IMG/VR virus record: IMGVR_UViG_3300049595_005065
DNA length: 64,000 bases
Direction: 5' to 3' (one strand)
Source of the DNA: a virus
Lineage: Duplodnaviria; Caudoviricetes
Shown: positions 1,315 to 64,000 of the stretch, in pieces
Layout of the letters: each line of letters opens with the position of its first letter
How positions within the stretch are numbered: position 1 is the stretch's first letter
Notes under the pieces: generated by a model
Database searches by the model: none
Told to the model about the DNA's origin: nothing
What the model saw: only the letters and a program-made list of their open reading frames with translations
Made by a program: the position numbers and the translations under genes

Positions 1315-2958
1315 ATGGCTCTGGAAATTGGCAGCCTGTCGGAACTCGATAGCGGCAAGATCGACGCGATGTTCGCGACGTTTACGCAACTTATGCAGGA
1401 GCGCCACCCCGAGGTCGAGCTGACCCGCGGCGTCTTTCATGACCTGGTCGTCTATTTCAACGCGGCCCTGAACGCCTCGGTTCGGGAAAACATCGACCGG
1501 GTGCTCGCCAGCAACAGCCTGCTCTCCATCTCGACCAACCCCGAGCTGGCCAACGACACCCTGGTCGACAAAGTCCTCGCGAACTACAACCTGACCCGCG
1601 ACACGGGCAAGCAGGCCGTGGGCGAAGCGACGCTGGTGTTCAATTCGGACACCCAGACCACCATCCTGGAAAGCATCGTCTTCTCGGCCGACGGCATCCA
1701 GTTTCAGCCGACGCAGACGTTCACGGCGCTGCCCACCGGCTCGATTCCCGCCGACGACAGCCAGCGGGTCATGATCGCCGCGGGCGACGGCTCGTACGTC
1801 GTGAACATCCTGCTGCGCGCCGTTGCGGTCGGTGTTGCCGGTAACATCCGCCGGGGCACCAAGCTCGTTCCCGACAACATCATCAACAACACGGCCCAGG
1901 CGTTTGCCGCCGTGGATTTCATCAGCGGCGCCGAGCCGCTCACCAACGCCGAGTACCTCAGCAAGCTCTCGGCGGGGCTGGCTTCCAAGGCGATTGGCGG
2001 GCGGCAGAACTACATCGCTCAGATCCGCAACCAGGCGGCCTTCACGAATATCCCCCATTTGTCGATCCTGGGCTGCGGCGACGTCGAGCAGCAGCGGGAC
2101 CAGCACAGCCTGTTCCCCATCTCCGGCGGCGGCAAGATTGATATCTATGCCCAGACAAACCACGACGCCCAGGAGCAGGAGCACACGCTGGAGGCCGTCT
2201 ACGTCGGCCCGGGTCAGTCCGGGACGAGCTGGCAGGTCGTGCTGGACCGCAACACGGCGCCGGGCTTCTACGAGGTTGTCCGCATCGCCAAGCCGCTTGC
2301 TCCCAACGAGACCGGCTACGCGATCACACAGGACATCCGAAACTTCGACCTCTCGGACCTCGATTTCATCCCGGACGTCGTCAGCGTGCCCGAGGCGGCC
2401 TACACCCGCTACCAGACGGCCGTGATCCGCTTCGAGGACACCGACACCCAGCCGGGCACCCTGGTCCCCCAGACGAGCCGGGCAATCTACTCGGTCACGA
2501 CGACCGGCCTGCCGCTGATCGACGAGCTGCAGGATTACATGTCCGACCGGGACGTCCGCAGCCGCGCCGCCGACGTGCTCGTGAAGGCCGCCGTCCCCTG
2601 TTTCACAAAGATATCTTTCGAGATCCGCAAGGGCGCCAACGACCCGGCGATCGACACGGCGCCGGTCAAGACCGCACTGGTGGCCGCCATTCGGGAGATT
2701 GGCTTCACCGGGCAGCTCCACGCCTCGACAATCTCCGGCGTCGTCCACCAGTTTCTCTCGGGCCGCGCGGCGCTGGGGGCGATTGACATGTTCGGCCGCA
2801 TCCGCCGTCCGGACGGTTCGATCCAGTACGTTCGCGACAACACGCTCCTTCAGATCCCCAACGACCCGACGCGCCTGGTCACCGGGCGCACCACGGCGTT
2901 CCTGATCGGCGAAGAGGACATCGAGATCTCCTTTGTCGCCGCGGGCTTCACGAACTAG
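1315..2958 (+). CDS. baseplate J-like wedge protein (T4 gp6/P2 gpJ family)
   Basis: 547 aa; A.G.ATL.F motif, AVAVGVAGNI (the G..GN motif of Baseplate_J), GAEPLTNAEYL. Confidence 0.8.
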   Translation: MALEIGSLSELDSGKIDAMFATFTQLMQERHPEVELTRGVFHDLVVYFNAALNASVRENIDRVLASNSLLSISTNPELANDTLVDKVLANYNLTRDTGKQAVGEATLVFNSDTQTTILESIVFSADGIQFQPTQTFTALPTGSIPADDSQRVMIAAGDGSYVVNILLRAVAVGVAGNIRRGTKLVPDNIINNTAQAFAAVDFISGAEPLTNAEYLSKLSAGLASKAIGGRQNYIAQIRNQAAFTNIPHLSILGCGDVEQQRDQHSLFPISGGGKIDIYAQTNHDAQEQEHTLEAVYVGPGQSGTSWQVVLDRNTAPGFYEVVRIAKPLAPNETGYAITQDIRNFDLSDLDFIPDVVSVPEAAYTRYQTAVIRFEDTDTQPGTLVPQTSRAIYSVTTTGLPLIDELQDYMSDRDVRSRAADVLVKAAVPCFTKISFEIRKGANDPAIDTAPVKTALVAAIREIGFTGQLHASTISGVVHQFLSGRAALGAIDMFGRIRRPDGSIQYVRDNTLLQIPNDPTRLVTGRTTAFLIGEEDIEISFVAAGFTN

Positions 2959-2968
2959 CAGGTAAGCG

Positions 2969-4549
2969 ATGGCCTCCTTCCTCTATCCTGGATCGGATCT
3001 CGACCGCGGTCGCGTGCTGCTGTCCGTCCTGGGCAGCTTCTGGGCGCGGACCTACACCGCCGTCGACCAGGTGCGCTCCTACACCGCGGCCACGGCGCAG
3101 TCGGTGGCGCAGTCTCAGCGCAACTTGCTCGAGACGGCGGCCGCGCTAAGCCGCTTCGAGGTGCCGCTCTACCACACCGAGAACTGGGTGCCGATCCCGC
3201 TGCGCAAGAGCGAGATGAACACGGGCCTGGTGGGCGTGGCCCGGTTCGACGACGGGCTGGTCACCTTCAATGATTACCGGAACTCGTTCGACCGCCCCAC
3301 GGCCCGGAACACCTACGCGTTCCCGCGCCCGGAGAAGATGGCGGGCGCTGCGCAGATTTTCAACAAGCTGCTGTTTCCCACGGTGGGCCTGGCTGAGGGC
3401 GTCGATTACCTGTTCGACCAGCAGCGCGATGCCATCATCTTCGCCGCCGACCCGTTTGAGCGGCCGGACTTTCACAGACGCATCATCTACGAGAACGCGC
3501 AGCCCGTGGACGAGGAAATCACCGTCTGGGCGTTCCAGGGCCGCTTTGACTACGAGTACGTCTTCACGCAGTTTGCCTACGCCCTGGGCATGCGCCTAAA
3601 AACCAGCCAGGGCTTCAAGGACTTGATGAACGCCGTGATCGACGGCCTGGTGAACGGCGGCGCCACGGCGCTCGACCTGGACCTGGCGCTGTCGGCGATC
3701 ACCGGCGTTCCAGTGGTCGTGGAGCCCGAGGAGACCGTGGAGGTCGTGCAGCTCGACGCCCGCGGACTGTTCATCGCCACGGACAAGAACGTCTACCGCT
3801 TCCCCGAGGCCGCCACCCCGGTCGTGGCCGTAGGCGACCGTGTCCGAGCGGGCCAGTCGCTTGTCGACGCGCTGCAGATCGTGTCCCTGGGCGGCCGAGT
3901 TCCCGAGGAGGTTGCCGCACTGGCGCTGGACGAGGGCTACCTGTCGGCCTGCTTCTACGGCGACCTGGTGTTCGAGAACAAGGCACTGCCGCTCATCGTC
4001 GATACGAACCACCCGAGCGGGTACACCTACGTGTCATTTCCGGTGGGCGGGTTCCCGGCCGACGTCAAGCAGTTTTTCGACGAGATCCACGAGCGCGGTA
4101 TCTGCGCCGCCGAGTGCGACCTGGGCGACTGCAATCCGGCGCTGCGGGCCAAGATGGGGACGCTGGCGCAGGTGCTGGATCGACGGGCGCAGCCCAGCGG
4201 TGAACCCAACGCCAGCCATTTGCCCGCAACGATCAACCCGTTGCAGTTTATTGCGGCGAATATCTTGCGAAACAACGTCTTTTTGGTGCGTATCAAGTCG
4301 CCCTCGTTGGGACAAAATAGGCTCGGTTTATACAATATCAGACACCTGCGTCAGCTCCTGCCGCCCCAGTCCGCCATGATCGTGCTTTACGAAATTGGCG
4401 GCATTCGGGACGCGGTCAGCGGCGCGGACAATGTAACGACCAGCGCGAGCACGTTTACGGGAGCCGAACCGCTCGCCGACGCGGTGACCGAAAACATGTT
4501 GCGGGACGCCGGAGCGACCGCGCGGACGCTATCTGGGACGTGCCAATAA
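2969..4549 (+). CDS. baseplate wedge protein (gp7/P2 gpI-like position)
   Basis: 526 aa immediately after the J-like gene; assignment by synteny only. Confidence 0.5.
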   Translation: MASFLYPGSDLDRGRVLLSVLGSFWARTYTAVDQVRSYTAATAQSVAQSQRNLLETAAALSRFEVPLYHTENWVPIPLRKSEMNTGLVGVARFDDGLVTFNDYRNSFDRPTARNTYAFPRPEKMAGAAQIFNKLLFPTVGLAEGVDYLFDQQRDAIIFAADPFERPDFHRRIIYENAQPVDEEITVWAFQGRFDYEYVFTQFAYALGMRLKTSQGFKDLMNAVIDGLVNGGATALDLDLALSAITGVPVVVEPEETVEVVQLDARGLFIATDKNVYRFPEAATPVVAVGDRVRAGQSLVDALQIVSLGGRVPEEVAALALDEGYLSACFYGDLVFENKALPLIVDTNHPSGYTYVSFPVGGFPADVKQFFDEIHERGICAAECDLGDCNPALRAKMGTLAQVLDRRAQPSGEPNASHLPATINPLQFIAANILRNNVFLVRIKSPSLGQNRLGLYNIRHLRQLLPPQSAMIVLYEIGGIRDAVSGADNVTTSASTFTGAEPLADAVTENMLRDAGATARTLSGTCQ

Positions 4550-4558
4550 GGGAGTATC

Positions 4559-5203
4559 ATGGCCACGGACAAGATTGGAGCAAACGGTTCGGGTGTCCGG
4601 GGGCACGTCACGCTCTGGAGCGTCGACGAAGCCAGCGGCCTGCTCACGCCCCTGCACAGCCAGAAGAACCAGATCGTCCTCTCCTGGGGGCACATCGCGG
4701 CCCGGCAGCTCGGCTTTCGCCCCGGCGCCGGACGCCCCAGCTACCACATCTCGGCGATGTACATCGAGTACGAGAACGTGGGCGACCCGGAGGACCCGGC
4801 GACCGTGGCTTCACTGGGTCGGGACCTCGACCCGGATTACTACTACGGCGAGTTGCTCAGCAGCTCGACCCAGGGCTTCATCCGAGTGCCGCTGCGGACC
4901 GAGCCGGTTCTGGGCGTCTCCACGGTGACCGAGGGCGACTACCCCGGCTACTTCACCGAAGGGACCAACGGCAACCAGCTCACATTCTTCGCCCAGACGT
5001 CGAACGCCGAGGTACAGAACGCTGTGCCGTTTGGCGCCGCCTACAACAGCAAGGTGTACGCCGCAGCGCTGGTGGCCACGCCCGAGTTCTCCGACCACAC
5101 CCAGGACATCGTCTTTGCGCGCACGACCTTCTCGGCCCCCAACCAGGTCACCAAGGAAGCGTCCTCGCAGATCGGCATCACCTGGGACATCGCCTTTGAA
5201 TAG
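4559..5203 (+). CDS. baseplate/tail-fibre attachment protein
   Basis: 214 aa; KNQIV...VFARTTF...VTKEASSQIGITWDIAF resembles baseplate/tail-collar proteins of large phages. Confidence 0.5.
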   Translation: MATDKIGANGSGVRGHVTLWSVDEASGLLTPLHSQKNQIVLSWGHIAARQLGFRPGAGRPSYHISAMYIEYENVGDPEDPATVASLGRDLDPDYYYGELLSSSTQGFIRVPLRTEPVLGVSTVTEGDYPGYFTEGTNGNQLTFFAQTSNAEVQNAVPFGAAYNSKVYAAALVATPEFSDHTQDIVFARTTFSAPNQVTKEASSQIGITWDIAFE

Positions 5204-8100: not shown

Positions 8101-9657
8101 ATGAGCTGCGAAGACTTCACCATTACGCCATCAGGCCGAGCGGGCATCGGCGTCGTTCAGCCCCAGAGCGGCCTTGACTATCCGCTGGTCGCCCCGTCGG
8201 ATGACATTAGATATCTAATCGCCGACTTCTACCTGGCCTACGACGATCCGGGGTTTTACCAGCCCGCCACGCCGCTGCGGCAACACCCGCTTCGCATCAA
8301 GTGGCTGTACGGCGTGGGCTGCGAGGCGGCCGTCAAACCAGTCTGGGCGCCGACGCCTGTGCATGCCGCGGACATCCTGGTCGTCGACGCCAATAACGTG
8401 ACCGTCTTCAATTCGACGCAGCTGGTGTCTCCCGGCGGCGACCCGAACTACTTCGAGTTTTCACAGCGCTCCTGGGGCAACGACTACGAGATTTACCAGT
8501 GGATCGGCTCCAACGTTGTCTGCCGCCTGGTCGTTTACAAGACCTGGCCGCCCTCGGCGATCGCCGCGGCCGATGCGGCGGACTTCTCAGTTGACGAACT
8601 GGTCAAGAAGAACTGGCCCAGCCACCTGTCGCCGACCAGCGCCGTGCTCGACGAGCGGGCCGTCTACAAGATGCCGCGCCGCGTGCGCTCGCTCCGTGTT
8701 GCGCCCACAGCGAGCCAGGGCGCCATTCGGCGGGCTGGGGCGGTTCTGGCCGCCGGGAACAACATGGTCATCGCCGCTGCGGCCCCTGAACTGAGCGGCC
8801 TGCGACGCAACACCGAGATCACCTTCAGCGTCGAGCCGGGCGCTGGGACAGGCAAGTACGAGGACTGCCCGGAGGATCCGACCACCCCCATCTACCAGAT
8901 CAACGGCGTCACGCCGAACCAGTACGGTGACCTAGTGATCGCCGGGCCGAGCTGTCTCTTCGTGCGGCAGCCCACGGCCATCGAGGGCGACGGCGTCCGC
9001 CCGGTGCGCACCTCCGGCGCCGCGACGCTGGCGATCAATACCGACTGTCCGCCCTGCTGCGACTGTTCAGACTACGTCGCCGTGGCGGAGTACATGACGC
9101 GCGTGGGCAATCAGTACGTGCGCATCGGCGAGCGAAGTCACGAAACCAAGCTGCTCCACGAAAGCAACATCGACCGCTGGGCGGAGCAGCGCGAGTGCCG
9201 CCTTTCGCGACCGCTGCGCGTCCTGATGACGCCGCAGAACTGTCCCTTTATGGACGTCGTGATCATGTTCTGCAACCAGTGCCAGACATGCGCCGAAGAC
9301 GTCAAACTGACCGTCCAGCTCAGCAGCTTTCCGGCGGTTAGCTCCGCCGAGATTGTGTGCGGGTACACGTTCCTCTACGCGCCAGGCTACCCCGGCGTGG
9401 AGTTCACGCTCCAGGGGACGTATCCGACCTTTGAAGCCCAGCTGCCCAAAGTCGACGTGGGCAACTCAGCGTACGTCAAGTTTCGCCTGCGCTTCTTACC
9501 AAAGACGTTCCCGTACACCATTACGGCAACGTTAACTGGTACAAACGAAGATCTTCCCATCCGCGCCGGGTGCGAGGTCGATAAACCTGTTGCCAGCGCA
9601 ACGACTGCGGCTTCGTTAAACTGCGACGCAAGCGGCGGCACGATCCAGAGCTGTTAA
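8101..9657 (+). CDS. Cys-rich structural protein, paralog 2
   Basis: SGLDYPL and INGVTPNQYGDL motifs; CPPCCDC. Confidence 0.65.
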   Translation: MSCEDFTITPSGRAGIGVVQPQSGLDYPLVAPSDDIRYLIADFYLAYDDPGFYQPATPLRQHPLRIKWLYGVGCEAAVKPVWAPTPVHAADILVVDANNVTVFNSTQLVSPGGDPNYFEFSQRSWGNDYEIYQWIGSNVVCRLVVYKTWPPSAIAAADAADFSVDELVKKNWPSHLSPTSAVLDERAVYKMPRRVRSLRVAPTASQGAIRRAGAVLAAGNNMVIAAAAPELSGLRRNTEITFSVEPGAGTGKYEDCPEDPTTPIYQINGVTPNQYGDLVIAGPSCLFVRQPTAIEGDGVRPVRTSGAATLAINTDCPPCCDCSDYVAVAEYMTRVGNQYVRIGERSHETKLLHESNIDRWAEQRECRLSRPLRVLMTPQNCPFMDVVIMFCNQCQTCAEDVKLTVQLSSFPAVSSAEIVCGYTFLYAPGYPGVEFTLQGTYPTFEAQLPKVDVGNSAYVKFRLRFLPKTFPYTITATLTGTNEDLPIRAGCEVDKPVASATTAASLNCDASGGTIQSC

Positions 9658-11235: not shown

Positions 11236-12018
11236 ATGTCCGACGCGCGTATTCTTTATCCGCAGTTTCGCGACGAGCAAGCTGACTCGCGCTACCCCTT
11301 CGCGGACCGGGCGACGCTTGCATCGTCAACGGCGGGCCTGGAGATTGGCCGGGACACCTTCATCGACGCCAGCATCTACACGATCAATGGCGACCGGCAG
11401 GCTTACATCTCGGCCATCGTCGTGACGCCACAGTTGATCACAATCTACCTCGGTGACGTGGGCGACCCGCGCCGCGCCAGCGCGGAGTTTAACCCGTTGG
11501 CCGCCCCGGCCGACGGCGTGCTCAACGTGTTTGATATCTATGGCCGCCCCGCGGGCATGCTCCTGTCGACGCCGCTGGCTCTGGCTCGATTTTCCGGCTG
11601 GCCCACAGGGACGCACACGTTTCTACCAGCGGCCGCGGAATTCGTCTCTTCCGTGGTCATTCCCGCGCGCGAACCGGGCGTCCGCGGCCTGGTGGCCGAC
11701 GACGCGGCGCTCCTCACGGGAGACGTCTGGATCGTAGGTGGCCGCGGCGTCGTTGTGCGAAAAGAAGACGAGGAAATCATTCGCGTCGACATCATCGGCG
11801 AACCGCTGTTCAACCGCTATCTCTGCGACCCTGTGCAGCGTTTTGCGCCCAAGACGTTCCTGCAATCGATCACCGTAAACCGGGTCACGTGCGGCCCCAA
11901 CGAATACGGCGGCTTTAACATCACCGCGACCGATCACGGCGCAAGCGATTCCGTCCTGCGAATCTACCCGCAAGACGGAAACATTAAAATAGACACGATC
12001 GGCCGAAAGGTGGTGTGA
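11236..12018 (+). CDS. structural protein, paralog 4
   Basis: QFRDEQADSRYPF, LTGDVWIVGG and GPNEYGGFNI motifs. Confidence 0.65.
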   Translation: MSDARILYPQFRDEQADSRYPFADRATLASSTAGLEIGRDTFIDASIYTINGDRQAYISAIVVTPQLITIYLGDVGDPRRASAEFNPLAAPADGVLNVFDIYGRPAGMLLSTPLALARFSGWPTGTHTFLPAAAEFVSSVVIPAREPGVRGLVADDAALLTGDVWIVGGRGVVVRKEDEEIIRVDIIGEPLFNRYLCDPVQRFAPKTFLQSITVNRVTCGPNEYGGFNITATDHGASDSVLRIYPQDGNIKIDTIGRKVV

Positions 12019-12019: not shown

Positions 12020-12973
12020 ATGCCCCGTCCAGGTTTCTACAACGACAACGAATACCGCGCCTACCCTTTCGTTTTTCGGACGAGCTATCCGGGGCCTGCG
12101 CTGCCGGACGCCGCGATCGTAGACGCCGGGCTGATCATGGGCCTGGACAGCGGCTACAACCCCGCCGAGCACAGCGTCTGGCTGTCCTCGATCTCCAGGG
12201 CGGGCGGCGTGCTGACGTTCACCTTTGCGTCCGACGCGCCCGGCGCAGCGACTCAAAACCTCTCGTTCGTGTGCAGCACCGCCGCGGAGGAGTGGCTGTC
12301 TGTGTTCGGCGAATCGGGCGTGATCGCCGGTGTTCCCAGCGCGTGCGACCCGGCGCCCATTTGGGAAGGTTTTCTCGTGGTCGGCGCGCTGGCGACGCTG
12401 CTGGAGCAGATCGCAGACAACTCAACGGTCACGTACCCCAGCCAGGCGCGCGTCCTCGAGCCGGGTCGCGTGCAGAGCCTGCTGAAGGGCTACCTGCGCA
12501 GCGTCAACGTGGGAAACTTCACGCGCGTCCGTGCGCTGCCCGCGCCAGAGTGCGACGACAGCTCGACCGCGGTCGACGAAAATGAAGTCGTCGTGAATGC
12601 CACGTGCATGCAGGGAAACATCCGTGTCAAGGAAGGCTACCACTGCCGCATTCGGCAGATCGAGCGAACCAACGAGATCAACATCTCCGCGGATCGCACC
12701 GCGGGTGACACCGAATTTAGCCCGCTGTGCGAGCACGGTGGAGACCTGCCCCTTTACGATGACGAACCGTTTGACGCAGCCACTGGTTTCTATGGCGGCG
12801 GCCCGGCGTGCAACCAGGTAATTTCTGCCATCAACGGCATCGGCGGCCCCAACGTTTCGCTGATTGCGGGGACGGGCGTAACAATCACCACCAACCCCAC
12901 GGATAAGACCATTACCATCGCGCTTGCGCAGAACAACCTCGTGGGTGGTTGCGGGACGGAGGCTGGGACGTGA
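12020..12973 (+). CDS. structural protein, paralog 5
   Basis: [12 protein letters not shown] and [11 protein letters not shown] motifs. Confidence 0.65.
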
Positions 12974-15534
12974 TGACCGGACCTGTCGATCCCATTTTCG
13001 ATCCGAACAAGTGCGGTTTGGGCCCGGTCCCCAAGCCTCCGGTGCAGTTCGTCATCGATTGCAACATCGATGAGCCGCCGCCGCCGATCTTCGACTGCGA
13101 ACCGCCGAGCATTCCGCGCGAGCCGCCACCGCCGCCGTGCCCCGAGTTCACCGGCGAGGTCACGGTCACCGCCGCGCCGCAAACCTGCTCCGGACCCAGC
13201 GAGCCTTCCGGCGCTCTGCTGATCACCAAGGTAGACAACGACCCGTGCCGCTTTTCGATTGACCTAGACCTGGACATTCCAATTCCGCCCGCGCCGTGCC
13301 CTGAAATCAAAGAGGGCGAGGTTACGGTCAACGTTGGTTACGCCGGAACAGGTGCTGGGTGCGTTTCTGAGGCTACCGGCGCCATTATTATCACGCCGCT
13401 TCCCGAAACTGATCCGTGCAGCGACAGCGATGAACCAAGGTGCCAATTCCAGATCGATCTGAACCTGGACATTCCGATCCCCCAGCCGGTGTGCCCCGAG
13501 ATTAACGAAGGCACGGTCAGCGTCAACGTTGGCTACAGCGACTGCGTGTCCGGCGCCAGCGGCGGGTTCACGATCACCAAGAACGAGATTGAAGGAGACT
13601 GCAACACTCCGCCGACCTGCTCGTTCACGATCGACCTGGATTTGGACATCCCAATCCCCAAGCCGGTGTGCCCCGAGATTAACGAAGGCACGGTCAGCGT
13701 CAACGTTGGCTACAGCGACTGCGTGTCCGGCGCCAGCGGCGGTTTCACAATTACCAAGAATGAGACCCCCGGAGATTGCGACACTCCACCGACCTGCTCG
13801 TTCACGATCGACCTGGATTTGGACATCCCAATCCCCAAGCCGGTGTGTCCAGAAATCAACGAAGGAACGGTCAGCGTCAACGTTGGCTACAGCGATTGCA
13901 TCTCGGGCGCTAGCGGCGGGTTCACGATTACCAAGAATGAAACCCCTGGAGATTGCGACACCCCGCCAACCTGCGATTTCACAATCGACCTAAACCTGGA
14001 CATCCCGATCCCCAAACCGGTGTGTCCGGAGATTAACGAAGGCGCGGTTAACGTTAACGTCGGCTACAGCGATTGCGTGTCGCAGGCAAGCGGTGGTTTC
14101 ACGATCACCAAGACGGAAACGCCGGGTGACTGCGATACGCCGCCGACCTGCTCGTTCACGATCGACCTCAACCTGGACATCCCGATTCCCAAGCCGGTTT
14201 GTCCCACGTTCAAGGAAGGTGCCGTCAGCGTAAACGTCGGCTACGACGACTGCGTGCCGCAGGCAAGCGGTGCGTTTACGATCAGTAAAACCGAAACAAG
14301 CGGCGACTGCGACACTCCACCCACGTGCGAGTTCACGATCGACCTTGACCTGGACATCCCGATTCCCAAGCCGGTTTGCCCGACATTTTCCGCATCGGGC
14401 ACCATTGCTTTTGGCGCGCCATCCATCTCCGTCAACGGAAACGTCAACTCAACGCCTGGCGACTGCGACACGCCGCCGACGTGCGACATCACGCTGGGCG
14501 TGGATGTTGTTGTTCCCAACCCCGCGTGCCCCGTCATCAGCGGCGCGATCAGCGTTTACGAAGCAGAAGAACCTACCGGCACGGTTACCGTTACCAAGAA
14601 CGAAGGTCCCAGCGGCGCGTGCGAATTCAACATTGAAATTGATATTGGGGTGCCCAAACCAAAGTGTCCCGAGATCAGCGGTTCAATCAGCGTTTATGAA
14701 ACGGAAGAAGAGCCAACTGGCACTTTTTCTGTTACTAGCGGTGAAACAGCGAGCGGCATTTGCGAATTCAACATTGAGATCGCCATCGGGGTACCCAAGC
14801 CGTCGGGCGTCACGGGCCCCACCGGCCCCAGTGGCCCGAGCGGGCCTAGCGGTCCTTCTGGACCTAGCGGCGCAAGCGGGCCGAGCGGCCCTTCCGGACC
14901 CAGCGGCCCTAGCGGTGTCGGTGGTGCTACAGGTCCAAGTGGACCTAGCGGACCCAGTGGTCCGAGCGGCCCTCAAGGTCCGAGCGGCGTGGATGGCATC
15001 CCAGGCGCTACAGGTCCAAGTGGACCTAGCGGCCCTCAAGGTCCGAGTGGCGTGGATGGCATCCCAGGCGCTACAGGTCCAAGTGGACCTAGCGGCCCTC
15101 AAGGTCCAAGCGGCCCAGAAGGCCCTAGCGGCCCCAAGGGCGACCCCGGCGAACCAGGACCGTCTGGCCCTGGCGGCCCCAGTGGCCCGCAAGGCCCCAG
15201 CGGCCCAGCAGGTCCAAGTGGACCAAAGGGCGACAAGGGAGACACAGGCGACCCCGGGCTGCCCGGACCTAGCGGTCCCAAGGGCGACAAGGGAGACACC
15301 GGCCCCAGCGGCCCGAAGGGCGACAAGGGCGACCAGGGCGACCCAGGCGCGCCTGGTTCGTCTATTGTGGGCCCACCCGGGCCGCCAGGGCCGCCTGGGC
15401 CGAGCGGGCCGAAGGGCGACAAGGGCGACCCGGGCGACGACTGCGTCAAGGTCCCGGTGACCGTGCTGACTGGCATGTCGTGTTCCGGCGGAAACTTGAT
15501 TGCAGACACGACGACCATCGAGGTGTGCGAGTAA
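12973..15534 (+). CDS. collagen-like tail fibre protein with 59-aa Cys/Pro repeats
   Basis: ATG overlaps the upstream TGA (TGATG). Contains the PVCPEINEG...[15 protein letters not shown] repeats followed by a long G-X-Y tract. Confidence 0.8.
13484..14368 (+). repeat. 5 x 177-bp in-frame tandem repeat, with degenerate copies on both flanks
   Basis: A(G/A)CCGGT-type unit starts at 13484, 13661, 13838, 14015, 14192 and 14369, an exact 177-bp period. Confidence 0.95.
14806..15441 (+). repeat. collagen G-X-Y repeat (about 70 triplets; GPS-rich, then GPKGDKGD)
   Basis: Seen directly in the translation. Confidence 0.95.
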
Positions 15535-45628: not shown

Positions 45629-45652
45629 TAGATATCTATTGAGTTCCCACGG

Positions 45653-45672: not shown

Positions 45673-45691
45673 TTTCCCCTTGGAGAAATCC

Positions 45692-48300: not shown

Positions 48301-48305
48301 TAACT

Positions 48306-49068: not shown

Positions 49069-49072
49069 TCCC

Positions 49073-49471: not shown

Positions 49472-49498
49472 TCCGGTCGATCTGACAATCTCCTTGCC

Positions 49499-49540
49499 AC
49501 GGAGGGCGCATGGGTGTGTACCTGTGCGCCCTCCGTCTTT
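49499..49540 (+). terminator. T-GTGT-A loop hairpin, copy 2 (intrinsic-terminator-like)
   Basis: 17-bp stem, 49499-49515 with 49520-49536, containing 2 G.U pairs and followed by CTTTT. Confidence 0.65.
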
Positions 49541-49564
49541 TCACCCCCAACTTCACGAGGCAAC

Positions 49565-49804
49565 ATGCCCACGTTTCGCATCAACGTGTCCGAACAGCAC
49601 CACAAGGAATTCGTCGTCAACTGCGATGACCGGCGAAAGGCCGAGGAGCTGGCCGCCAGCATCCTGACTGACGGAGAAATCATGTCGGCCCTGACGACAA
49701 AGCCGATTCTTCGCACGCACGACTCCAAGACGACAGACTGCCAGATCAGCGAAGAGCCGGAAGGCTACTACGACAACGCGGCTGAATCCGCGCTGAGCGG
49801 TTGA
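49565..49804 (+). CDS. hypothetical protein
   Basis: SD GAGG; 79 aa. Confidence 0.65.
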   Translation: MPTFRINVSEQHHKEFVVNCDDRRKAEELAASILTDGEIMSALTTKPILRTHDSKTTDCQISEEPEGYYDNAAESALSG

Positions 49805-49826
49805 TTCCCCCAAACCACAGGACCAC

Positions 49827-51374: not shown

Positions 51375-51394
51375 ACACAAACCAAGGAACTACC

Positions 51395-51961
51395 ATGAGC
51401 ACTGCTACTCTCAAAAAGAGCCACGTTTCCCAGACCCTCAGCCAAATCGCCGAGGCGGTCGAGGCCGTCAAGAACGACGGCTTGCAGATCTTTAGCGAGG
51501 CCGCCAGCGTCGGCGACAGCCTCCGCCAGGGCGACGTCGTCCTGCAGTTCATCGGCAGCGACCCTGTCGAGATCCCGCCCCATATCTACCAAAAGCTTGA
51601 TACCCCGGTCCTTCAGCTTGCCCCCGGCAACACGAAGGGCAGCCGCCACATCCTCTCTAGCGCCGAAGGCGTCGAGATGTGGGAGCCGGTCCCCACGGAC
51701 GAGGCGTGCGCCAAGTACGTCTACGAGAAGCACGGCAAGAAGTTCCCCAGCGGTACCGCACGCTGGAATCTCGATTTCAGCGAGGAACGAGGAGCGCTCG
51801 AGACCGCCATGGCGATGGCCGGGCCGTTCTTCCGCCTCTCCCAGCCGACCGTGCTGACTCACCCCGAGCACGGTGACTGGCAGCTCCCCTGCGGCACTTA
51901 CCGCGTGATCTTCCAGCGGACGCTCGACGAGCAGGAGCGGATCCAGCGGGTCCTCGACTGA
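51395..51961 (+). CDS. DUF6745-partner protein
   Basis: RQGDV...LAPGNTKGSRHIL...LTHPEHG...LP.GTY.V..QR. Confidence 0.65.
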   Translation: MSTATLKKSHVSQTLSQIAEAVEAVKNDGLQIFSEAASVGDSLRQGDVVLQFIGSDPVEIPPHIYQKLDTPVLQLAPGNTKGSRHILSSAEGVEMWEPVPTDEACAKYVYEKHGKKFPSGTARWNLDFSEERGALETAMAMAGPFFRLSQPTVLTHPEHGDWQLPCGTYRVIFQRTLDEQERIQRVLD

Positions 51962-51972
51962 TAGATATCTTT

Positions 51973-52003
51973 GGGCGGGGTCCGTGTGTACGGGCCCCTG
52001 CTC
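51973..52003 (+). terminator. T-GTGT-A loop hairpin, copy 3
   Basis: GGGGTCCGT-GTGT-ACGGGCCCC. Confidence 0.5.
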
Positions 52004-53386: not shown

Positions 53387-53769
53387 TGGCGCACCCGTAC
53401 CATCACGCCGTCAGTTCTGCCCGGAAGTTCGGCGGCTTGCCCGAGGACTACATAAAGTTTCACGACTTTCTTGATGGTTCCAAGGCCCACGTCGCCGACT
53501 TCCGGCACCGCGCCCTCCGCCACCACACGGAGGGCATTTTCATGATGGAGCAGATATTTGGCTCCACGATGACCAATTCCGACGGCCGCGTCGTGCCGGT
53601 GCGCTACATCGGCGAGCAGCACGTCAAAGAAGACCTGGGACGCATTCCCACGGTTGCCGACTGGCTGCTTCACATCGAGCCCCAGCGCTGGATGCTTGGC
53701 CGCGGCAAAGACCTCGCCAAGGAGCTTGAGCTTGAAGAAGCCGAAAAGAACCCGAGTGTCGCTCAGTGA
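53386..53769 (+). CDS. DUF6915-like protein
   Basis: MAHPYHHAVSSARKFGG.PEDY...DFRHRALRHH..G...EQHVKEDLG.IP. Confidence 0.8.
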   Translation: MAHPYHHAVSSARKFGGLPEDYIKFHDFLDGSKAHVADFRHRALRHHTEGIFMMEQIFGSTMTNSDGRVVPVRYIGEQHVKEDLGRIPTVADWLLHIEPQRWMLGRGKDLAKELELEEAEKNPSVAQ

Positions 53770-54025
53770 AGACGACCTCAAAGATATCAATCCCGATTCG
53801 CAGCTTCACAAACGAGTAGTCGAAGAGCTCGCGAGCATTGAAGCCGGGCGCCCGTACGTCAAGTACGCCGAGGACCGGCTGCAGCGTGACGGCGACCTAG
53901 AGATCGACGACGACGCCGTGGTCAGCCTGGGCTTCGACGACGGCGCCTACATCATGTGCTGGAAGTGGATCGACCACGACACCATGCGCGCCGAAGGTTA
54001 CCTGGAGCCCGACAATGACGATTGA
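53756..54025 (+). CDS. hypothetical protein
   Basis: GTG start; DGDLEIDDDAVVS..GAY...W.W. Confidence 0.65.
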   Translation: MSLSEDDLKDINPDSQLHKRVVEELASIEAGRPYVKYAEDRLQRDGDLEIDDDAVVSLGFDDGAYIMCWKWIDHDTMRAEGYLEPDNDD

Positions 54026-55425: not shown

Positions 55426-55760
55426 TGAATCAATCGTATCGCAACATTTGTAGGGCGTTTTGGGCTGATCATATTGACGACGACCCTGTGTCGGATGACG
55501 TGCTTGACGCAATGAGCGACGCACTAGACGCCACAGCGCAAGATTGCGCGGCATTTTTTCTTGCTCACGGTACGCATCCTTGGCTTGTCAGCGAAGAACC
55601 AGACGAAAGGCTTATTGCGGTCGCGCCAAAACTTCTGGAAGCCGCAAAGCTGCTCGTGGTGCTCGAAGACAACGAGGTACACGACGCAGATACACGATGG
55701 AAAACAGCTCGTAAGCTATTGCGCAAAGCCATTGCGCAAGCAGAAGGAAAAACCACATGA
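55425..55760 (+). CDS. hypothetical protein
   Basis: TAATG overlap; C-terminal LIAVAPKLLEA..A..KAIAQA motif common in phage ORFs. Confidence 0.65.
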   Translation: MNQSYRNICRAFWADHIDDDPVSDDVLDAMSDALDATAQDCAAFFLAHGTHPWLVSEEPDERLIAVAPKLLEAAKLLVVLEDNEVHDADTRWKTARKLLRKAIAQAEGKTT

Positions 55761-56215
55761 CTGCAAGACTTGCCTACATCATGCGCCATGACGCGGAATT
55801 CGATCCCGCCCACATGCGCGAGATCATCTATGACCTGTATGCCGGGTCGTTCGAGAACGATTGCGGCAGCACCGACGAGATCGTGGACGTCCTGAGCACG
55901 GCGATTTTCAAGTACCGCTGCGCCACCGAGGACGACCTGGACACCGAGAAGGAATTCATCAAGGACGGCCACGCCGCGGAGCAGTACTTCTGCGACTGCA
56001 TGCGGAAGATCCTGGCGGCCAACGGTTGGCACCCCGACGGCCTGGAAGACTACGCCGTCTGGCCGGACAACCTCTCGGTCGAGACGACCTGGGAAAAGGA
56101 AGTCCTGCGCGAACTGGCGCAAATCCAGGCGGGCCACGACCTGGTGGTCCGGGACCAGCTCAAGAAGCTGTGGGAAGAAGAGAAAGCCAAGGAGGGCGCC
56201 GCCAAGGCGGAATAG
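55757..56215 (+). CDS. hypothetical protein
   Basis: 152 aa, strong codon bias. Confidence 0.7.
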   Translation: MTARLAYIMRHDAEFDPAHMREIIYDLYAGSFENDCGSTDEIVDVLSTAIFKYRCATEDDLDTEKEFIKDGHAAEQYFCDCMRKILAANGWHPDGLEDYAVWPDNLSVETTWEKEVLRELAQIQAGHDLVVRDQLKKLWEEEKAKEGAAKAE

Positions 56216-56221
56216 ATATCT

Positions 56222-56545
56222 ATGGAAGCACGCGTTTTCACCAAGGGCATCCTGAAGAGCGTCAACACCATGGCGCAGGTTCAGGGCTATAACCGGGTCA
56301 CCGACGAGAAGTTCCTCGACCGGCTGCCCGACGGGTTCTACACGCCCAAGTACACCCTGCTGCACGAGCACAAGGCAGGCAAGCCCTGCGAGCCGCACGT
56401 CCGCTGCGTGTTCGACCACGAGGGGGACTATTTCTTTATCGACGTCGAAATGGGCTGCTGGGAGAAGCTCCCAACGGCCAGCGGTTTCGCCGATATGATC
56501 GCGCATGTTCACAGCCGTCGGGCCATGGGAGACACCAGCGTATGA
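56222..56545 (+). CDS. hypothetical protein
   Basis: 107 aa; His/Cys cluster HEH...CEPHVRC. Confidence 0.7.
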   Translation: MEARVFTKGILKSVNTMAQVQGYNRVTDEKFLDRLPDGFYTPKYTLLHEHKAGKPCEPHVRCVFDHEGDYFFIDVEMGCWEKLPTASGFADMIAHVHSRRAMGDTSV

Positions 56546-57666: not shown

Positions 57667-57863
57667 CTGTGGTTACGCTTAATCTTGAAAAGCGCGGCGC
57701 CAAAGTGCTGCGCGAGGTCCTTTCCTACGCCCTGTCGAACCTGGACGACCTGAACGAGGCGCTCGACAGCGACGTGCAGGAGGACGAGGTCAACTTCATG
57801 CTCAACGTGCTGAACAGCCTCGAGCTGGACGCGCCAAACACAGAAGACGAGCCGACCGAATGA
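57663..57863 (+). CDS. hypothetical acidic protein
   Basis: 66 aa, ATGA overlaps at both ends. Confidence 0.65.
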   Translation: MTVVTLNLEKRGAKVLREVLSYALSNLDDLNEALDSDVQEDEVNFMLNVLNSLELDAPNTEDEPTE

Positions 57864-58792
57864 TTCTGCTTACCGGCGCCGCGGGCTTTATCGGCTCAAA
57901 CGTCCTCAAGGCGCTCAACGCCCAGGGCCGCGACGACATCATCTGCGTTGACGACCTGACCGACGGGCGCAAGATGCAACACCTCGCCGGGAAGAAGTTT
58001 TACTATTACTGTGATTATCGCGACCTGGGAAAAGGTAAAACGCGCGAGGCCAAGCTTAGCGCGATTATTCACCAGGGTGCAAACTCGGACACCACCGAGT
58101 CAAACGGCCGTAACATCATGCTGGCCAATTACAGTTTTTCGGTGGATTTGTTCGACCTGGCGGCTGCCGCGGCCTGTCCGCTGATCTACGCTTCAAGCGC
58201 GGCGATCTACGGCCCGGGCAAGCCCCGGTGCGTCGAGTCGCACGAGCACGAGCACGAGCACCCGACCACGCCGTACGCCATCTCGAAGTGGGCGTTTGAC
58301 GAATACGTCCGCGGTCGATTGACGCAGGCGGCTAACAGGGTGGTCGGCCTGCGGTATTTCAACGTCTACGGCCCGGGCGAGGCGCACAAGGGCCGGATGG
58401 CCAGCGTAGCGCACCACCTGTTCGAGCAAGCCAAGCTGAACGGCGACTGCGTGCTCTTCGAGGGAAGCAAAGATATCTTTCGTGATTTTGTCTACATCGA
58501 CGACGTTGTACAGGTCGTCTTGTGGGCACTGAACGAAGCACCCTCGGGGATTTACAATGTCGGCACCGGCCAGGCTCGGTCGTTTCACGACGTGTTCGAG
58601 TGCGTGGCGCGGCAAACGAAGTATCCCGGCGCATGCCGCTGGGTTCCGTTTCCCGAGGAGCTGCGCGCCCAGTATCAGTTTCACACGCAGGCTGACCTTA
58701 CTCGCCTGCGCGCGGCCGGTTACGCCGAAGCGTTTCGGTCGCTGGAAGAGGGCATGACGGCGTACTGGCGCAACATCCAGTACGCAGCATGA
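57860..58792 (+). CDS. hldD: ADP-L-glycero-D-manno-heptose 6-epimerase
   Basis: TGAAGFIGSN, HQGANSDTTE, YASSAAIYG, YAISK (YxxxK), LRYFNVYGPGEAHKGRMASV, RDFVYIDDV, YQFHTQAD. Confidence 0.92.
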   Translation: MILLTGAAGFIGSNVLKALNAQGRDDIICVDDLTDGRKMQHLAGKKFYYYCDYRDLGKGKTREAKLSAIIHQGANSDTTESNGRNIMLANYSFSVDLFDLAAAAACPLIYASSAAIYGPGKPRCVESHEHEHEHPTTPYAISKWAFDEYVRGRLTQAANRVVGLRYFNVYGPGEAHKGRMASVAHHLFEQAKLNGDCVLFEGSKDIFRDFVYIDDVVQVVLWALNEAPSGIYNVGTGQARSFHDVFECVARQTKYPGACRWVPFPEELRAQYQFHTQADLTRLRAAGYAEAFRSLEEGMTAYWRNIQYAA

Positions 58793-59237: not shown

Positions 59238-60353
59238 ATGTCCAACACGGAACAGAGACGAGATCGCAACTTCCACCGCAGCGCGCCGACGAACGAGATC
59301 GCAGAGCAGCTGCTGATCGGCCTGCCTCGTGATACGTCGCTCAGAACGCTGCCTCATGTCCTGCCCGGCTGTTCGCTTGACGCAAACGGGCGCGCAATTC
59401 CCGAAGAGGAACGGCAGCCGCAGGTCTGGGAAGACGGCGTCTACATCGCGGTGTGCAACCGGGTCGCGCGCGAATTGCAGAAGTACAACACCTGCAATCG
59501 CAATCGCCGCGAAAACAACGTCACGCGACTTGTCGACGCGATGATGACCAACGCGTGGATGTACAACGGAAAGTCGAGCACGCTGGCCTGCTCGAACACG
59601 GCAATCCTCGACAGCCAGCATTTCCTCGAGGCAGCCGTGCGCTACTTCGAGGGGCCGGAGACCGAGCACGTCAAGCGACCGTTCTTGATGCGCGTCGAGA
59701 TGGGGCTGCCGCCAGAAACCTTCGCAACCTACGACAATGGCGCCAAGCGCACTGTCGCAGACACGCTGGTTGTCGGCGCGGCAACGGGATCGGTCGACTA
59801 CGGCGACGTTTCGGACACGTTGCTGGCGTCGTCGCAGAGGCTGCTGTTGCAGTATCTCAACAACGTCCATGATGACCTCAAGCCGACGGATCTCGAGTAC
59901 CTGCCCAACGAACGGGCCGGTCTCGTGAACAGCCGCGCTTGCGATATCCTCCGGGCATATCCAAACCTGGTGTCGTCCGCAGCGTTCATCACCACCCTTC
60001 GTGGCCTGCAGGCTTTTGTGAAGGGCCACGTTGCGGTGGTCGCGCACATGCTGATCTCGGAGATCCAGTCGACCAACGCCGCAAACAACTTCCTTCGCGG
60101 CCTGGCCACCGGTGTTAACCTCGAGGAAGGCAGCCCGGTGCTCGCATTGCGCAGCGTCTACATGAAGTCGCGCTCGCGAAAGCGTCGGATGGAAGGTCCC
60201 GAGGCGCTTGCGTTTTTCATCCGCGCCTGGAACTTTTTCGCAGAAGGAAAGACCATCTCGGCTGGTCGTCTGCGTGGGTTCGATCCGGAAAACAAGATCC
60301 CCGTGCCGCAGAGACTGTCTCGAGCGCGTCGAACTGAGGCTGTCGAGAGCTGA
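59238..60353 (+). CDS. ParB/Srx-like N-terminal domain protein with degenerate nucleotide-binding motif
   Basis: NRNRRENNVTRLVDAM...W...ILDSQHFLEA (cf. LDGQHRL.A)...YDNGAKRTVAD. Confidence 0.6.
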   Translation: MSNTEQRRDRNFHRSAPTNEIAEQLLIGLPRDTSLRTLPHVLPGCSLDANGRAIPEEERQPQVWEDGVYIAVCNRVARELQKYNTCNRNRRENNVTRLVDAMMTNAWMYNGKSSTLACSNTAILDSQHFLEAAVRYFEGPETEHVKRPFLMRVEMGLPPETFATYDNGAKRTVADTLVVGAATGSVDYGDVSDTLLASSQRLLLQYLNNVHDDLKPTDLEYLPNERAGLVNSRACDILRAYPNLVSSAAFITTLRGLQAFVKGHVAVVAHMLISEIQSTNAANNFLRGLATGVNLEEGSPVLALRSVYMKSRSRKRRMEGPEALAFFIRAWNFFAEGKTISAGRLRGFDPENKIPVPQRLSRARRTEAVES

Positions 60354-60371: not shown

Positions 60372-60582
60372 TTGGGAGGGATGGCAGGGCTGTGTAGCCC
60401 TGCCTCCCAACCAAATCCTCTACTCCCTTATGGCCACCGAAGGTGGCCATCTAGGTCAGGGCAAATCGGACAGCTTTTTTTCTTAGCTGTCAACGTAAGT
60501 GCTCTGTTTGCAAAGACTTAAGTAGGCTGCGCGCAGCGTTTTTCGCAGCGCACTCTCAAAAAACTGCGCGTAAGTCTTTGCA
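60372..60582 (+). ncRNA. cluster of three intergenic hairpins, including T-GTGT-A loop copy 4
   Basis: GGCAGGGCT-GTGT-AGCCCTGCC; ATGGCCACC-GAA-GGTGGCCAT; TGCAAAGACTTA(60509)...TAAGTCTTTGCA(60582). Confidence 0.45.
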
Positions 60583-60616: not shown

Positions 60617-61432
60617 ATGGCTGAGAGTCCGCGCTCACCACCCCGAAAGATATCTATTCGCCCGATCCGCCAGGCTGCTGTCGAGCCTGAAACCCGCGGC
60701 GTCGTGCTCTATCGCGGCGAAAGCCCCTTCTTGCCCGACGGCGATCGCTCGTACGCCGTGATCCTGACGTTCCAGTCTGACAACCGGAAGACCGGCGACA
60801 TGGCGCAGATCTGGCTCATCCCCGAGAACGAGTCACCGCTCATGGCGCGCCAGCTCGGTCTGCACCAGATCGTCTGCGGCGACTGTCCCGTCGTAGCTCT
60901 GTGCTACGTGAACCTCGCACACCGCCCCAGGACGCTCTACGAGGCCTACAAGCGCGGAGAGTACCCAGACGCCGGTCCAGCGCTCTACGAGCCCGTGGTG
61001 GCCTTCAAGGGCGTCCGGTTCGGCGCCTACGGCGACCCGGTCCTGATTCCGCTGCCGATGGTCGAGCGGCTGGTCGCCCTGGCGGGTCGGCGCTTCACCG
61101 GGTACACCCACCAGTGGCGCCGCCCGGAGTACCAGGTCTACCGGCCCTACTTCATGGCGAGCTGCGAGACCCTTGAGGACGCGCAGCTGGCCGAGAGCAT
61201 GGGCTGGCGCTGGTACATGGTCACGCTTGACGAGACCGTGCCCGGCGCCGTGCTGTGCCCCCACCAGAACGAACAGAACAAGTACGAGGTGAAGTGCAAC
61301 ACCTGCTGGGCCTGCAATGGCGCCAGCCGCCCTGTCGGTGCACGGCAGCGCGCCAACATCATCGCGCGGCCAACAGGCCACAACCACAGCGCCACACGTT
61401 GGCGCAAACACATGGAGAAACAAACTGCATGA
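60617..61432 (+). CDS. GP88-like Cys-rich phage protein
   Basis: SDNRKTGDMAQIW, CGDCP..CYV, VRFGAYGDP, TGYTHQW, MASCE, CNTCWAC. Confidence 0.65.
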   Translation: MAESPRSPPRKISIRPIRQAAVEPETRGVVLYRGESPFLPDGDRSYAVILTFQSDNRKTGDMAQIWLIPENESPLMARQLGLHQIVCGDCPVVALCYVNLAHRPRTLYEAYKRGEYPDAGPALYEPVVAFKGVRFGAYGDPVLIPLPMVERLVALAGRRFTGYTHQWRRPEYQVYRPYFMASCETLEDAQLAESMGWRWYMVTLDETVPGAVLCPHQNEQNKYEVKCNTCWACNGASRPVGARQRANIIARPTGHNHSATRWRKHMEKQTA

Positions 61433-63596: not shown

Positions 63597-63615
63597 TTCA
63601 CCTGGCTAACAGATG

Positions 63616-63686
63616 AGCCCAGTAGCTCAGTGGCAGAGTCCGATATTGTATGTCGGAGGACCCAGGTTCGATTCCTGGCTGGGCGC
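63616..63686 (+). tRNA. atypical tRNA, anticodon TGT (Thr-like), possibly a pseudo-tRNA
   Basis: Acceptor and T arms nearly identical to tRNA-Asn; CCGAT-ATTGTAT-GTCGG; A1.G72 mismatch, A32, no nt 26. Confidence 0.6.
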
Positions 63687-63714
63687 ACCTTGTTTACCCC
63701 AAGGAAAGATATCT

Positions 63715-64000
63715 ATGAGTCCTGAACTTGAAGAAAAACTGGTCACGGATTTCTCGGAGCTGTTTCACCGCATCCGGACTCACCCCACAACAAATACGCG
63801 TTACTACGGCTGCGAAACGGGCGACGGCTGGTTTCAGCTTGTCTACCAGCTGTGCGACACAATCTCCAGCTACGTGAAGCACGAGAAGGAGCAGGGCCGA
63901 GACGTCGCGGTTAAGGTTTTGCAGGTCAAGGAGAAGTTCGGCGGCCTGCGGTTCTACATCGAGGGTGGCGACGATTTTGTGCGCGGCGCCATCGAGCTGG
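63715..64000 (+). CDS. conserved phage hypothetical protein (3' truncated by window)
   Basis: CETGDGWFQLV...VLQVKEKFGGLRFY. Confidence 0.8.
   Translation, partial: MSPELEEKLVTDFSELFHRIRTHPTTNTRYYGCETGDGWFQLVYQLCDTISSYVKHEKEQGRDVAVKVLQVKEKFGGLRFYIEGGDDFVRGAIEL

Follow-up and report, generated by a model that had tools for sequence, protein, structure and literature searches.

An evenly spaced array of exact palindromes, maintained at the DNA level in a narrow clade of uncultured phages, as a candidate set of protein-binding sites

Introduction

Why would a phage with GC-rich DNA keep one short AT-rich palindrome at dozens of places, most of them inside its genes? The question is raised by a 64,000-nt stretch of the IMG/VR record IMGVR_UViG_3300049595_005065 (hereafter the window, meaning that whole stretch), in which the palindrome WWWGATATCWWW recurs from one end to the other in DNA with a GC content of 61.9%. 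A first-pass annotation, made from the sequence alone, had judged the GC content by eye to be about 62% and had read the palindrome as a genome-wide array of protein-binding sites, with a ParB-like protein and a pair of helix-turn-helix (HTH) proteins as candidate binders. Here we describe the enrichment, distribution, spacing, turnover and anatomy of the palindrome in the window and in related phages, and weigh what may read it.

The window derives from an uncultured lake phage with a genome of ~200 kb, and the public sequencing runs that contain it are lake and freshwater metagenomes. It encodes a baseplate wedge-like protein and collagen-like fibres and, on the minus strand, a large terminase of the gpA type. 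Cultured phages offer no match to the window DNA or to its baseplate protein, and the nearest cultured large terminase, that of Salmonella phage Arash, is 30% identical. A terminase search of IMG/VR returned 18 contigs, several of them 150–230 kb long; the relatives retrieved with it are labelled G001–G014, and the identities given below are those of their large terminase to that of the window. About 97% of the genes lie on one strand (by a rough gene map), and each of the five large relatives has an open reading frame (ORF) of ~1,460 amino acids that is like the beta subunit of a multisubunit RNA polymerase. Sigma70_r2 was undetected in the relatives. The window phage is probably lytic.

Results

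The palindrome is enriched and selected as DNA

Exact copies of WWWGATATCWWW number 18 in the window against 0.01 expected from dinucleotide shuffles, the largest value in any shuffle being 1, and 13 of the 18 are WWAGATATCTWW. All of these copies had been found by eye in the first-pass annotation with every start coordinate and sequence exact, against its own expectation of fewer than 0.1 copies per window. The hexamer GATATC occurs 24 times versus 4.8 expected; with 18 full sites this leaves six hexamers without the A/T flanks, and the bare form is thus at chance level (6 versus ~4.8). Five of these six had been listed correctly, whereas the one at 31456 had been overlooked. Under order-3 and order-4 Markov backgrounds, the motif family (AGATATCT, ATAGATATCT and AAAGATATCT) supplies by far the most enriched 8- and 10-mers of the window, and the motif tops the Markov-corrected k-mer lists of the window, G001, G002 and G003 alike. 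Next in rank are CCTAGCGG (window) and GGTACCTAGCAG (G001), both of them collagen-like tandem repeats of fibre genes and discarded as signals; the former comes from a collagen-like G-P-S repeat region in the tail-fibre gene at 12973–15534 (plus strand).

Within genes, the motif is written against the codon preferences of the phage. Shuffling synonymous codons within genes gave a mean of 0.25 copies (maximum of 2 in 200 shuffles) where 13 coding copies are observed. Wherever the window encodes a [KIFNYL]-D-I-[FYNKIL] peptide (nine cases), the codons spell the motif, and GAT, AAA and TAT each serve only ~20% of their amino acid in window genes. The enrichment survives both the high-order Markov and the codon-aware null that the first-pass annotation had proposed as checks, and its claim that selection acts on the DNA and not on the protein is upheld by the codon shuffles and by the comparison of orthologues below. 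It was also right that the motif lies inside genes, as it does at 13 sites, although the three reading frames that it had named are not equally used: GAT-ATC is in frame at 9 of the 13 coding sites in the window, at 19 of 32 in G001 and at 22 of 24 in G003.

Matching to the palindrome is all-or-none. The mismatch spectrum of the window holds 18 exact sites, no site with one mismatch (0.9 expected) and seven sites with two mismatches (10 expected).

The array is restricted to close relatives

The palindrome is a genome-wide feature, as had been proposed, with 40–49 copies in the three large close relatives. The complete genome G001 (204 kb with terminal repeats, terminase identity 90%) carries 49 sites, and G002 (154 kb, 96%) and G003 (197 kb, 81%) carry 40 each; the fragments G011 (46 kb, 90%), G012 (19 kb, 89%) and G013 (17 kb, 96%) have 11, 5 and 5. 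The density is thereby ~1 site per 3.5–4.2 kb in every record with a terminase identity of at least 81%. Records with an identity of 77% or lower hold background counts and no array: 0–2 sites in G004, G006 and G007 (43–168 kb, 77%), none in G008 and G014 (14–38 kb, 74%), none in G005 and G009 (101–229 kb, 51%) and three in G010 (172 kb, 30%). As a control, the motif with its letters reversed is found 0 times in G001–G005 and once per strand in G010.

De novo k-mer enrichment in the outgroups yielded no substitute motif of comparable strength. In a scan of IMG/VR for the 14-mer CAAAGATATCTTTG, the GC-rich hits among the matches listed were all relatives of this phage, and the remaining ones were chance matches in AT-rich contigs. 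This distribution points to a lineage-specific array that was gained whole within a narrow clade of jumbo phages carrying their own RNA polymerase.

Sites are evenly spaced and turn over at constant density

The 48 spacings of G001 have a mean of 4.1 kb and a coefficient of variation (CV) of 0.60, compared with 0.98 for random placement, and none of 20,000 simulations was as even. Its largest gap measures 10.9 kb, and 99.3% of simulations had a larger one (P = 0.007); spacing in the window is likewise over-even (CV 0.64, P = 0.03). Intergenic or gene-boundary sites make up 28% of the array in the window, 35% in G001 and 40% in G003, versus 8–11% of non-coding DNA; in the window, 5–6 of the 18 lie between genes or overlap a start or stop codon. 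Along genes, the coding copies (60–72%) are uniformly distributed. Many of the intergenic copies overlap or adjoin the upstream stop codon, with the motif itself providing TAG or TGA, a placement that can be read as economy, because C-terminal residues are the least constrained, rather than as proof of a 3'-end function.

Alignments of orthologues across sites are ungapped, and site and non-site differ by substitutions that are often synonymous. The sites are therefore not insertions, and an origin from a mobile miniature palindromic element was rejected. A non-site is typically 3–4 synonymous positions away from a site, as where the window reads ATT-GAT-ATC-TAT, G002 reads GTC-GAC-ATC-TAC and G003 reads GTG-GAC-ATT-TAC. 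Among the window, G001 and G002, ~65–75% of sites are retained in position; the 12-mer, lost sites counted, differs at 8–15% as compared with 21–25% for the flanks. Orthologous conservation, a check that the first-pass annotation had suggested, is accordingly seen among close relatives and mostly not against G003, with which only 2 of 15 and 5 of 14 positions are shared at an equal density. So few shared positions at equal density indicate turnover under selection for density. Individual sites are thus under purifying selection, with a longer-term turnover of positions during which density is held. The wholesale turnover in G003 coincides with a change of the half-site, described below. Homology breakpoints between relatives are not enriched near sites (P = 0.17–0.5), and the idea that the palindromes mark mosaic boundaries or recombination sites was dropped.

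Anatomy of the site and its switch in a sister lineage

With both halves folded together, the half-site of the window, G001 and G002 reads A(-6) W(-5) A(-4) G A T, with A at frequencies of 0.86–0.96 at position -6 and 0.83–0.92 at position -4, A about as frequent as T at -5, and T avoided at -7. The full site carries ~22 bits and its two halves are equally constrained. Intergenic copies, which are free of coding constraint, are mostly perfect ATAGATATCTAT and are often extended to GAATAGATATCTATTC or longer, giving perfect palindromes of 16–22 bp. Of the extended palindromes reported in the first-pass annotation, those at 8206–8219, 21212–21225 and 34152–34165 are 14 bp long as described, and the one placed at 35759–35776 is longer, spanning 22 bp at 35757–35778.

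The G003 site is shifted and longer, C-T-C-A-T-T-G-A-T·A-T-C-A-A-T-G-A-G (form CATTGATATCAATG), with a half-site of ATTGAT in place of AWAGAT. Position -4 is T in 86% of its half-sites, and additional information is found at -7 to -9. From a dimeric, co-evolving reader of duplex DNA one would expect equal halves, an operator-like length and a one-base switch between sister lineages. The dyad symmetry and the ~22 bits would fit a dimeric protein-binding site, and to this extent the original proposal of a protein-binding array is supported.

A separate promoter-like element

From k-mers specific to intergenic DNA we found an oriented bipartite element, (G)CTAAAT-N16-(G)GGCATA(T). Its forward matches are intergenic in 9 of 9 cases in G001, 5 of 5 in G003, 6 of 8 in the array-less G004 and 1 of 1 in the window (23528–23554), and only three reverse-strand matches occur across these four sequences. 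CTAAAT-N16-GGCATA is probably the promoter of the phage's own RNA polymerase, and since this separate family promoter exists even in palindrome-free relatives, the palindrome is not this promoter. The bipartite element is preceded, in several genomes, by a TTAGCTATCAG box and a GC hairpin. The 229-kb outgroup G005 has enriched elements of its own, CGCGGGTATTGAA, which is probably its -10 equivalent, and the GC palindrome GCGCCGGCGC (13 sites), and it is without an AT-rich array.

Palindromes and promoters do meet in places. In G003 a palindrome lies at most 40 nt upstream of the -35 in 3 of 5 promoters; at two of these three and at 1 of 9 promoters in G001 the palindrome ends 3–4 nt before the -35 CTAAA (offset -15/-16), and at least one G003 palindrome precedes a promoter that lacks a palindrome in G001. 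These abutting copies are the only direct hint that binding might affect transcription.

Four plus-strand intergenic hairpins with GC-rich stems of 9–17 bp and GTGT loops were also seen in the window (~45652–45675, 49500–49537, 51978–51999 and 60384–60405). Two of them sit 25–33 nt after a palindrome, and they have no clear T-run; they may serve in RNA processing or stability, or as terminators specific to the polymerase.

The 18 sites of the window

Sites that read in the D-I frame begin in the baseplate-wedge-like gene 1315–2958, where ATTGATATCTAT at 2137–2148 encodes I-D-I-Y and corresponds to ATAGATATCTAT in G001. Its orthologues in G002 and G003 keep the same D-I-Y peptide, spelled GAC-ATC/ATT-TAC, and the site was thus made by synonymous changes. 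TTTGATATCTAT at 11530–11541 (F-D-I-Y, gene 11236–12018) is lacking at the orthologous place in G001 and G003. The AAAGATATCTTT copies at 21213–21224 (glycosyltransferase gene 20082–21992, with the 14-bp palindrome 21212–21225) and at 58469–58480 (NAD-dependent epimerase gene 57860–58792) both read K-D-I-F and are kept in G001. AAAGATATCTAT reads K-D-I-Y at 26385–26396 (ORF 26181–26495, kept in G001, and 340 nt ahead of the 3' end of the minus-strand gene 26725–27813) and at 30137–30148 (gene 27896–30532, identical in G001 and absent in G003). AAAGATATCAAT reads K-D-I-N twice at 5' ends, at 32883–32894 in gene 32862–33314, which is among the few sites common to the window, G001 and G003, and at 53780–53791 in ORF 53756–54025, and TTTGATATCAAA at 34153–34164 (F-D-I-K, gene 33529–34242) lies within the 14-bp palindrome 34152–34165.

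Coding copies in other frames are AAAGATATCTTT at 2607–2618, which reads K-I-S in gene 1315–2958 and has no site in G001 or G003; TTAGATATCTAA at 8207–8218, which reads R-Y-L in gene 8101–9657, is part of the 14-bp palindrome 8206–8219 and is kept in G001; and AAAGATATCTTT at 39754–39765, which reads K-I-S near the 3' end of ORF 39380–39838, 85 nt ahead of the 3' end of the minus-strand gene 39839–40750.

The remaining sites lie at gene boundaries. ATAGATATCTAT at 35762–35773, within the perfect 22-bp palindrome, fills the 12-nt gap between the convergent stops of gene 35306–35761 (plus strand) and the large terminase 35774–37708 (minus strand), and this convergent terminase junction is occupied by a site in every array-bearing relative. 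Two sites begin on the last base of a TGA stop: ATAGATATCTAT at 45628–45639, after the AAA-ATPase gene 44135–45628 and with a GTGT-loop hairpin ~25 nt downstream, and ATAGATATCTTT at 51961–51972, after gene 51395–51961 and also followed by a GTGT-loop hairpin; an intergenic site follows the gene orthologous to the latter in G001 and G003 too. At 56212–56223, ATAGATATCTAT gives the TAG stop of gene 55757–56215 and the first two ATG bases of gene 56222–56545; the orthologous junction holds TTTGATATCAAT in G003 and the one-off ATAAATATCTAT in G001. AAAGATATCTAT at 60646–60657 is intergenic or falls in the first codons of an ORF whose start is uncertain (60578/60617/60704–61432), and AAAGATATCTAT at 63705–63716 stands directly before and overlaps a candidate ATG at 63715, with an AAGGA ribosome-binding site upstream.

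Candidate binders

Neither binder nominated in the first-pass annotation holds up. The 'ParB-like' ORF at 59238–60353 has no Pfam hit and no ParB domain, matches only a PHROG whose function is unknown, and is missing from G001 and G003, which bear full arrays; the analogy with parS and ParB falls with it. The supposed HTH pair at 41644–42048 and 42093–42830 (plus strand) are paralogues with a conserved N-terminal domain of three helices and a C-terminal helical hairpin in common; the region between the two is basic in the short form (41644) and acidic-extended in the long form (42093). The structural model of the short form (predicted local distance difference test score of 75) shows the three N-terminal helices as a confident domain, followed by a disordered basic linker and the C-terminal helical hairpin, and a Foldseek search of the PDB with it gave no significant fold, the best hits (E = 2–5) being winged HTH domains of MntR and ArgR. 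The pair has no family hit, the short gene is not separate in G003 and the long gene occurs also in array-less G004; the pair is not supported as the binder. A sequence search of all three proteins against solved structures returned nothing significant.

Phylogenetic profiling leaves 55 G001 genes that are common to G003 and absent from four array-less genomes. Pfam families among the 53 of these that were searched include kinases, glycosyltransferases, MazG, HD, PAS and DUF1016_N; the DUF1016_N and PAS genes were set aside, as they are present also in array-less G005. Two adjacent, basic, lineage-specific small proteins (32318–32644 and 32648–32812) are encoded just upstream of the conserved site at 32883. 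Neither gives a family hit; their only look-alikes are labelled 'hypothetical phage protein', and the first has distant homologues in unrelated phage contigs that bear no GATATC array.

Neighbouring genes

Several other features of the region were noted. The large terminase at 35774–37708 is among the few opposite-strand genes in every relative (mapped for the whole window, G001, G003 and G004). A 67-amino-acid ORF at 26003–26206 (plus strand) is by sequence a clear CsrA-type RNA-binding regulator (MLVLSRK...GIEAP...V.R.E); it is kept in G001 and G003 and absent from G004. The trio at 43569–45628 (plus strand) comprises a weak DUF1257-like ORF, a DUF2997 gene and an AAA ATPase (93% identical in G001), and the block 43569–51961 is lacking at the syntenic place in G004. 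The ORF at 30513–30860 (plus strand) encodes an extremely acidic protein of 115 amino acids, 62 of them D or E, with GAx repeats, and public contigs show many length variants and joints at 30640–30810, which marks it as a hypervariable low-complexity region. The host-like epimerase gene has matches of only 25–32%, to metagenome-assembled genomes from soil, a result that is uninformative as to the host.

Discussion

We consider it somewhat probable (~60%) that the palindrome is a high-affinity site for a single two-fold symmetric, homodimeric binder, and that the sites act collectively across the genome; the argument is from symmetry, information content, spacing and the half-site switch. Our guess is that this binder is encoded by the phage, which we find a rather better bet than a host protein. 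Selection would then keep a lattice of ~1 site per 3.5–4 kb across the ~200-kb genome and not specific sites at specific genes. Wherever the coding sequence can bear it, new sites would arise through several substitutions at once, AT-ward and mostly synonymous, with a preference for x-D-I-x peptides, stop codons and short intergenic gaps. The most likely use would be control of the transcription of a genome that is nearly all co-oriented, with the bound protein serving as an operator beside promoters and, at other positions, as a roadblock or a point of nucleation, much as stoperators of Cluster A or KorB operators do. Close behind would come a role in coating the genome or in its architecture.

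Several observations weigh against such a set of binding sites. No binder was found: HTH_3, HTH_17, RHH_1 and ParB_N (PF02195) were undetectable in five relatives (G001–G005 for PF02195), and Pfam searches of 53 of the 55 lineage-specific genes gave no DNA-binding family. Matching as strict as this, all or none, typifies enzymes more than regulators. Two thirds of the sites lie inside genes at uniform positions, which is atypical of operators, and just a handful are adjacent to promoters. The array is also sparser, at ~1 site per 7 kb, in the 110–160 kb region of G001, which includes the stretch matching the baseplate and tail genes of the window.

The exactness of the sites, 18 perfect copies with none at one mismatch, favours substrates of a site-specific enzyme, whether an endonuclease that nicks or cleaves, a type II topoisomerase cutting across the central ATAT with a 4-bp stagger, or a DNA methyltransferase or other modifier, whose marks would be needed at regular intervals for replication, supercoil relief or packaging. 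Even spacing and a strict core, GATATC, which is the EcoRV sequence, with flanks restricted to A/T, would be in keeping with this, and near-total co-orientation of genes would make transcription-driven supercoiling severe. We nevertheless regard an enzyme substrate as unlikely: the D12 methyltransferase family (Dam/EcoRV-type, PF02086) is absent from five relatives, the DUF1016/PD-(D/E)XK-like gene is present also in array-less G005, symmetric nicking of a palindrome would cut the genome ~50 times, and the flank preferences of G003, reaching position 9, resemble an operator and not a hexamer enzyme site. The sequencing data examined, Logan contigs of lake and freshwater metagenomes, span the sites without breaks or variants, although contigs cannot reveal nicks or modification. 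A target of EcoRV-type restriction–modification was rejected on the absence of PF02086 and the chance level of the bare hexamer, in a search that did not cover the EcoRV nuclease family itself. The density of about one site per 4 kb is similar to that of Chi in E. coli, and a Chi-like or self-identity mark, read by a travelling helicase-nuclease or recombination machine and protecting DNA or starting recombination-dependent replication, would also account for lineage specificity, tolerance anywhere in genes, even spacing and turnover at constant density, with a palindrome serving both directions of travel. Known Chi sequences lack symmetry, are rich in G and are recognised as single strands, whereas the site here is a dyad whose equal halves and extensions to 16–22 bp point to duplex recognition, and the sites have no association with homology breakpoints; such a mark therefore seems improbable.

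Two further explanations are contradicted by the tests. Some 50 copies per 200 kb would be a plausible number of operons, and an AT-rich, easily melted element in DNA of 58–62% GC, over-represented in intergenic DNA, adjoining several stop codons and filling one convergent junction, in phages of which all five large representatives encode an RNA polymerase beta-like protein, could suggest that the palindrome is itself a promoter or terminator element of that polymerase, for example a minimal late promoter like TATAAATA of T4. We hold this to be quite improbable, given the separate oriented CTAAAT-N16-GGCATA element of array-bearing and palindrome-free phages alike, outgroups with the same polymerase and no such motif, and coding copies that are uniform along genes with no concentration before the next start; moreover, a palindrome would fire equally antisense in a one-strand genome, and its density falls in the sparse part of G001. 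A segregation or partition system of the parS, matS or NBS kind bound by the ParB-like protein, as first proposed, would be consistent with a palindrome of parS-like size in a large phage genome. It is the least credible of the explanations, given the lack of the ORF at 59238–60353 from two full arrays, the failure to detect ParB_N, and an even spread of sites (18 per 64 kb in the window and 49 per 204 kb in G001) where parS sites are clustered and small in number; family scans, which were not aimed at such genes, turned up no integrase and no plasmid-maintenance gene.

A literature search on the motif and on dispersed phage palindromes yielded nothing beyond a paper on Cluster O mycobacteriophages, the closest published analogue. 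In Corndog and its relatives, 70-kb siphoviruses of an actinobacterial host, a 17-bp dyad repeat, TGTTCGG-N3-CCGAACA, is present in more than 30 invariant copies per genome (PMC4351075). It lies between and within genes with no meaningful orientation and is found in one cluster only, and its function and binder are unknown (PMC4351075). The array described here is likewise invariant, of at least 30 copies, intergenic and intragenic and restricted to one cluster, but its sequence is dissimilar and the 3-bp spacer is a feature of the Cluster O repeat. Even spacing, synonymous recoding and a shift of specificity between sister lineages are not described in the Cluster O paper.

For mechanism, stoperators and KorB operators are the best analogues, although the array lacks the defining features of both. 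Cluster A stoperators, bound by the gp71 repressor in L5, are dozens of exact sites across the genome, including transcribed regions, at which bound repressor blocks elongation; they belong to temperate phages, are 13 bp long, asymmetric and aligned with transcription, and bind a monomer, and their sequence varies by sub-lineage together with the repressor. The array shares the many exact genome-wide copies, transcribed DNA included, but its site is strictly palindromic and belongs to a phage of ~200 kb that is probably lytic and has an RNA polymerase of its own, and no repressor-like family was found to match the stoperator case (HTH_3, HTH_17 and RHH_1 in five relatives; Pfam families of lineage-specific genes). 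The RK2 KorB operators (OB, TTTAGCSGCTAAA) are twelve palindromes with A/T-rich arms placed ~every 5 kb, through which KorB, a dimer and a ParB-family CTPase, regulates many operons from promoter-proximal and distal sites. Here too dispersed palindromes have A/T-rich arms, yet OB is intergenic whereas the array is written into coding sequence as well, and the ParB_N domain is undetectable in the relatives.

Other dimer-read sites are more distant. The NBS sites of Noc, the SBS sites of SlmA and the matS sites of MatP are palindromes of 12–14 bp in tens of copies with a chromosome-wide function, but they belong to host chromosomes, are linked to cell division, are 50–100 times sparser, are regionally excluded or confined, and have unrelated sequences. 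Operators of the P22 c2 or Cro/CI type (consensus ATTTAAG-N4-CTTAAAT) are 18-bp dyads bound by an HTH dimer, with six operators at two promoters. A P22-type operator with a central ATAT contains AAGATATCTT, and such a sequence is therefore a feasible target of an HTH dimer; P22 has only six operators, however, and HTH_3 is undetected in relatives of the array-bearing phages.

A bolder version of collective binding is speculative but possible: a 'lattice code' in which regular loading or nucleation sites let a phage protein of no known DNA-binding family coat, mark or organise the 200-kb genome, either for self/non-self discrimination or for a global on/off switch of virion-polymerase-driven transcription, with a specificity that co-evolves by lineage (AWAGAT to ATTGAT). 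If true, this would be a novel class of phage chromosome-organising system and not an operator set.

Dispersed exact repeats in phages, such as that of Cluster O, have been described before and never explained. The present array constrains any mechanism through its all-or-none matching, its over-even spacing, its upkeep against codon bias, the turnover of positions at constant density, the one-base switch of the half-site and the gain of the array in a narrow clade of jumbo phages. The 55 lineage-specific genes, together with the switch between sister lineages, offer a tractable route to the binder. A collective function such as coating, silencing or self-marking, if true, would represent a new principle of phage genome management, and would also provide a portable orthogonal protein–DNA pair.

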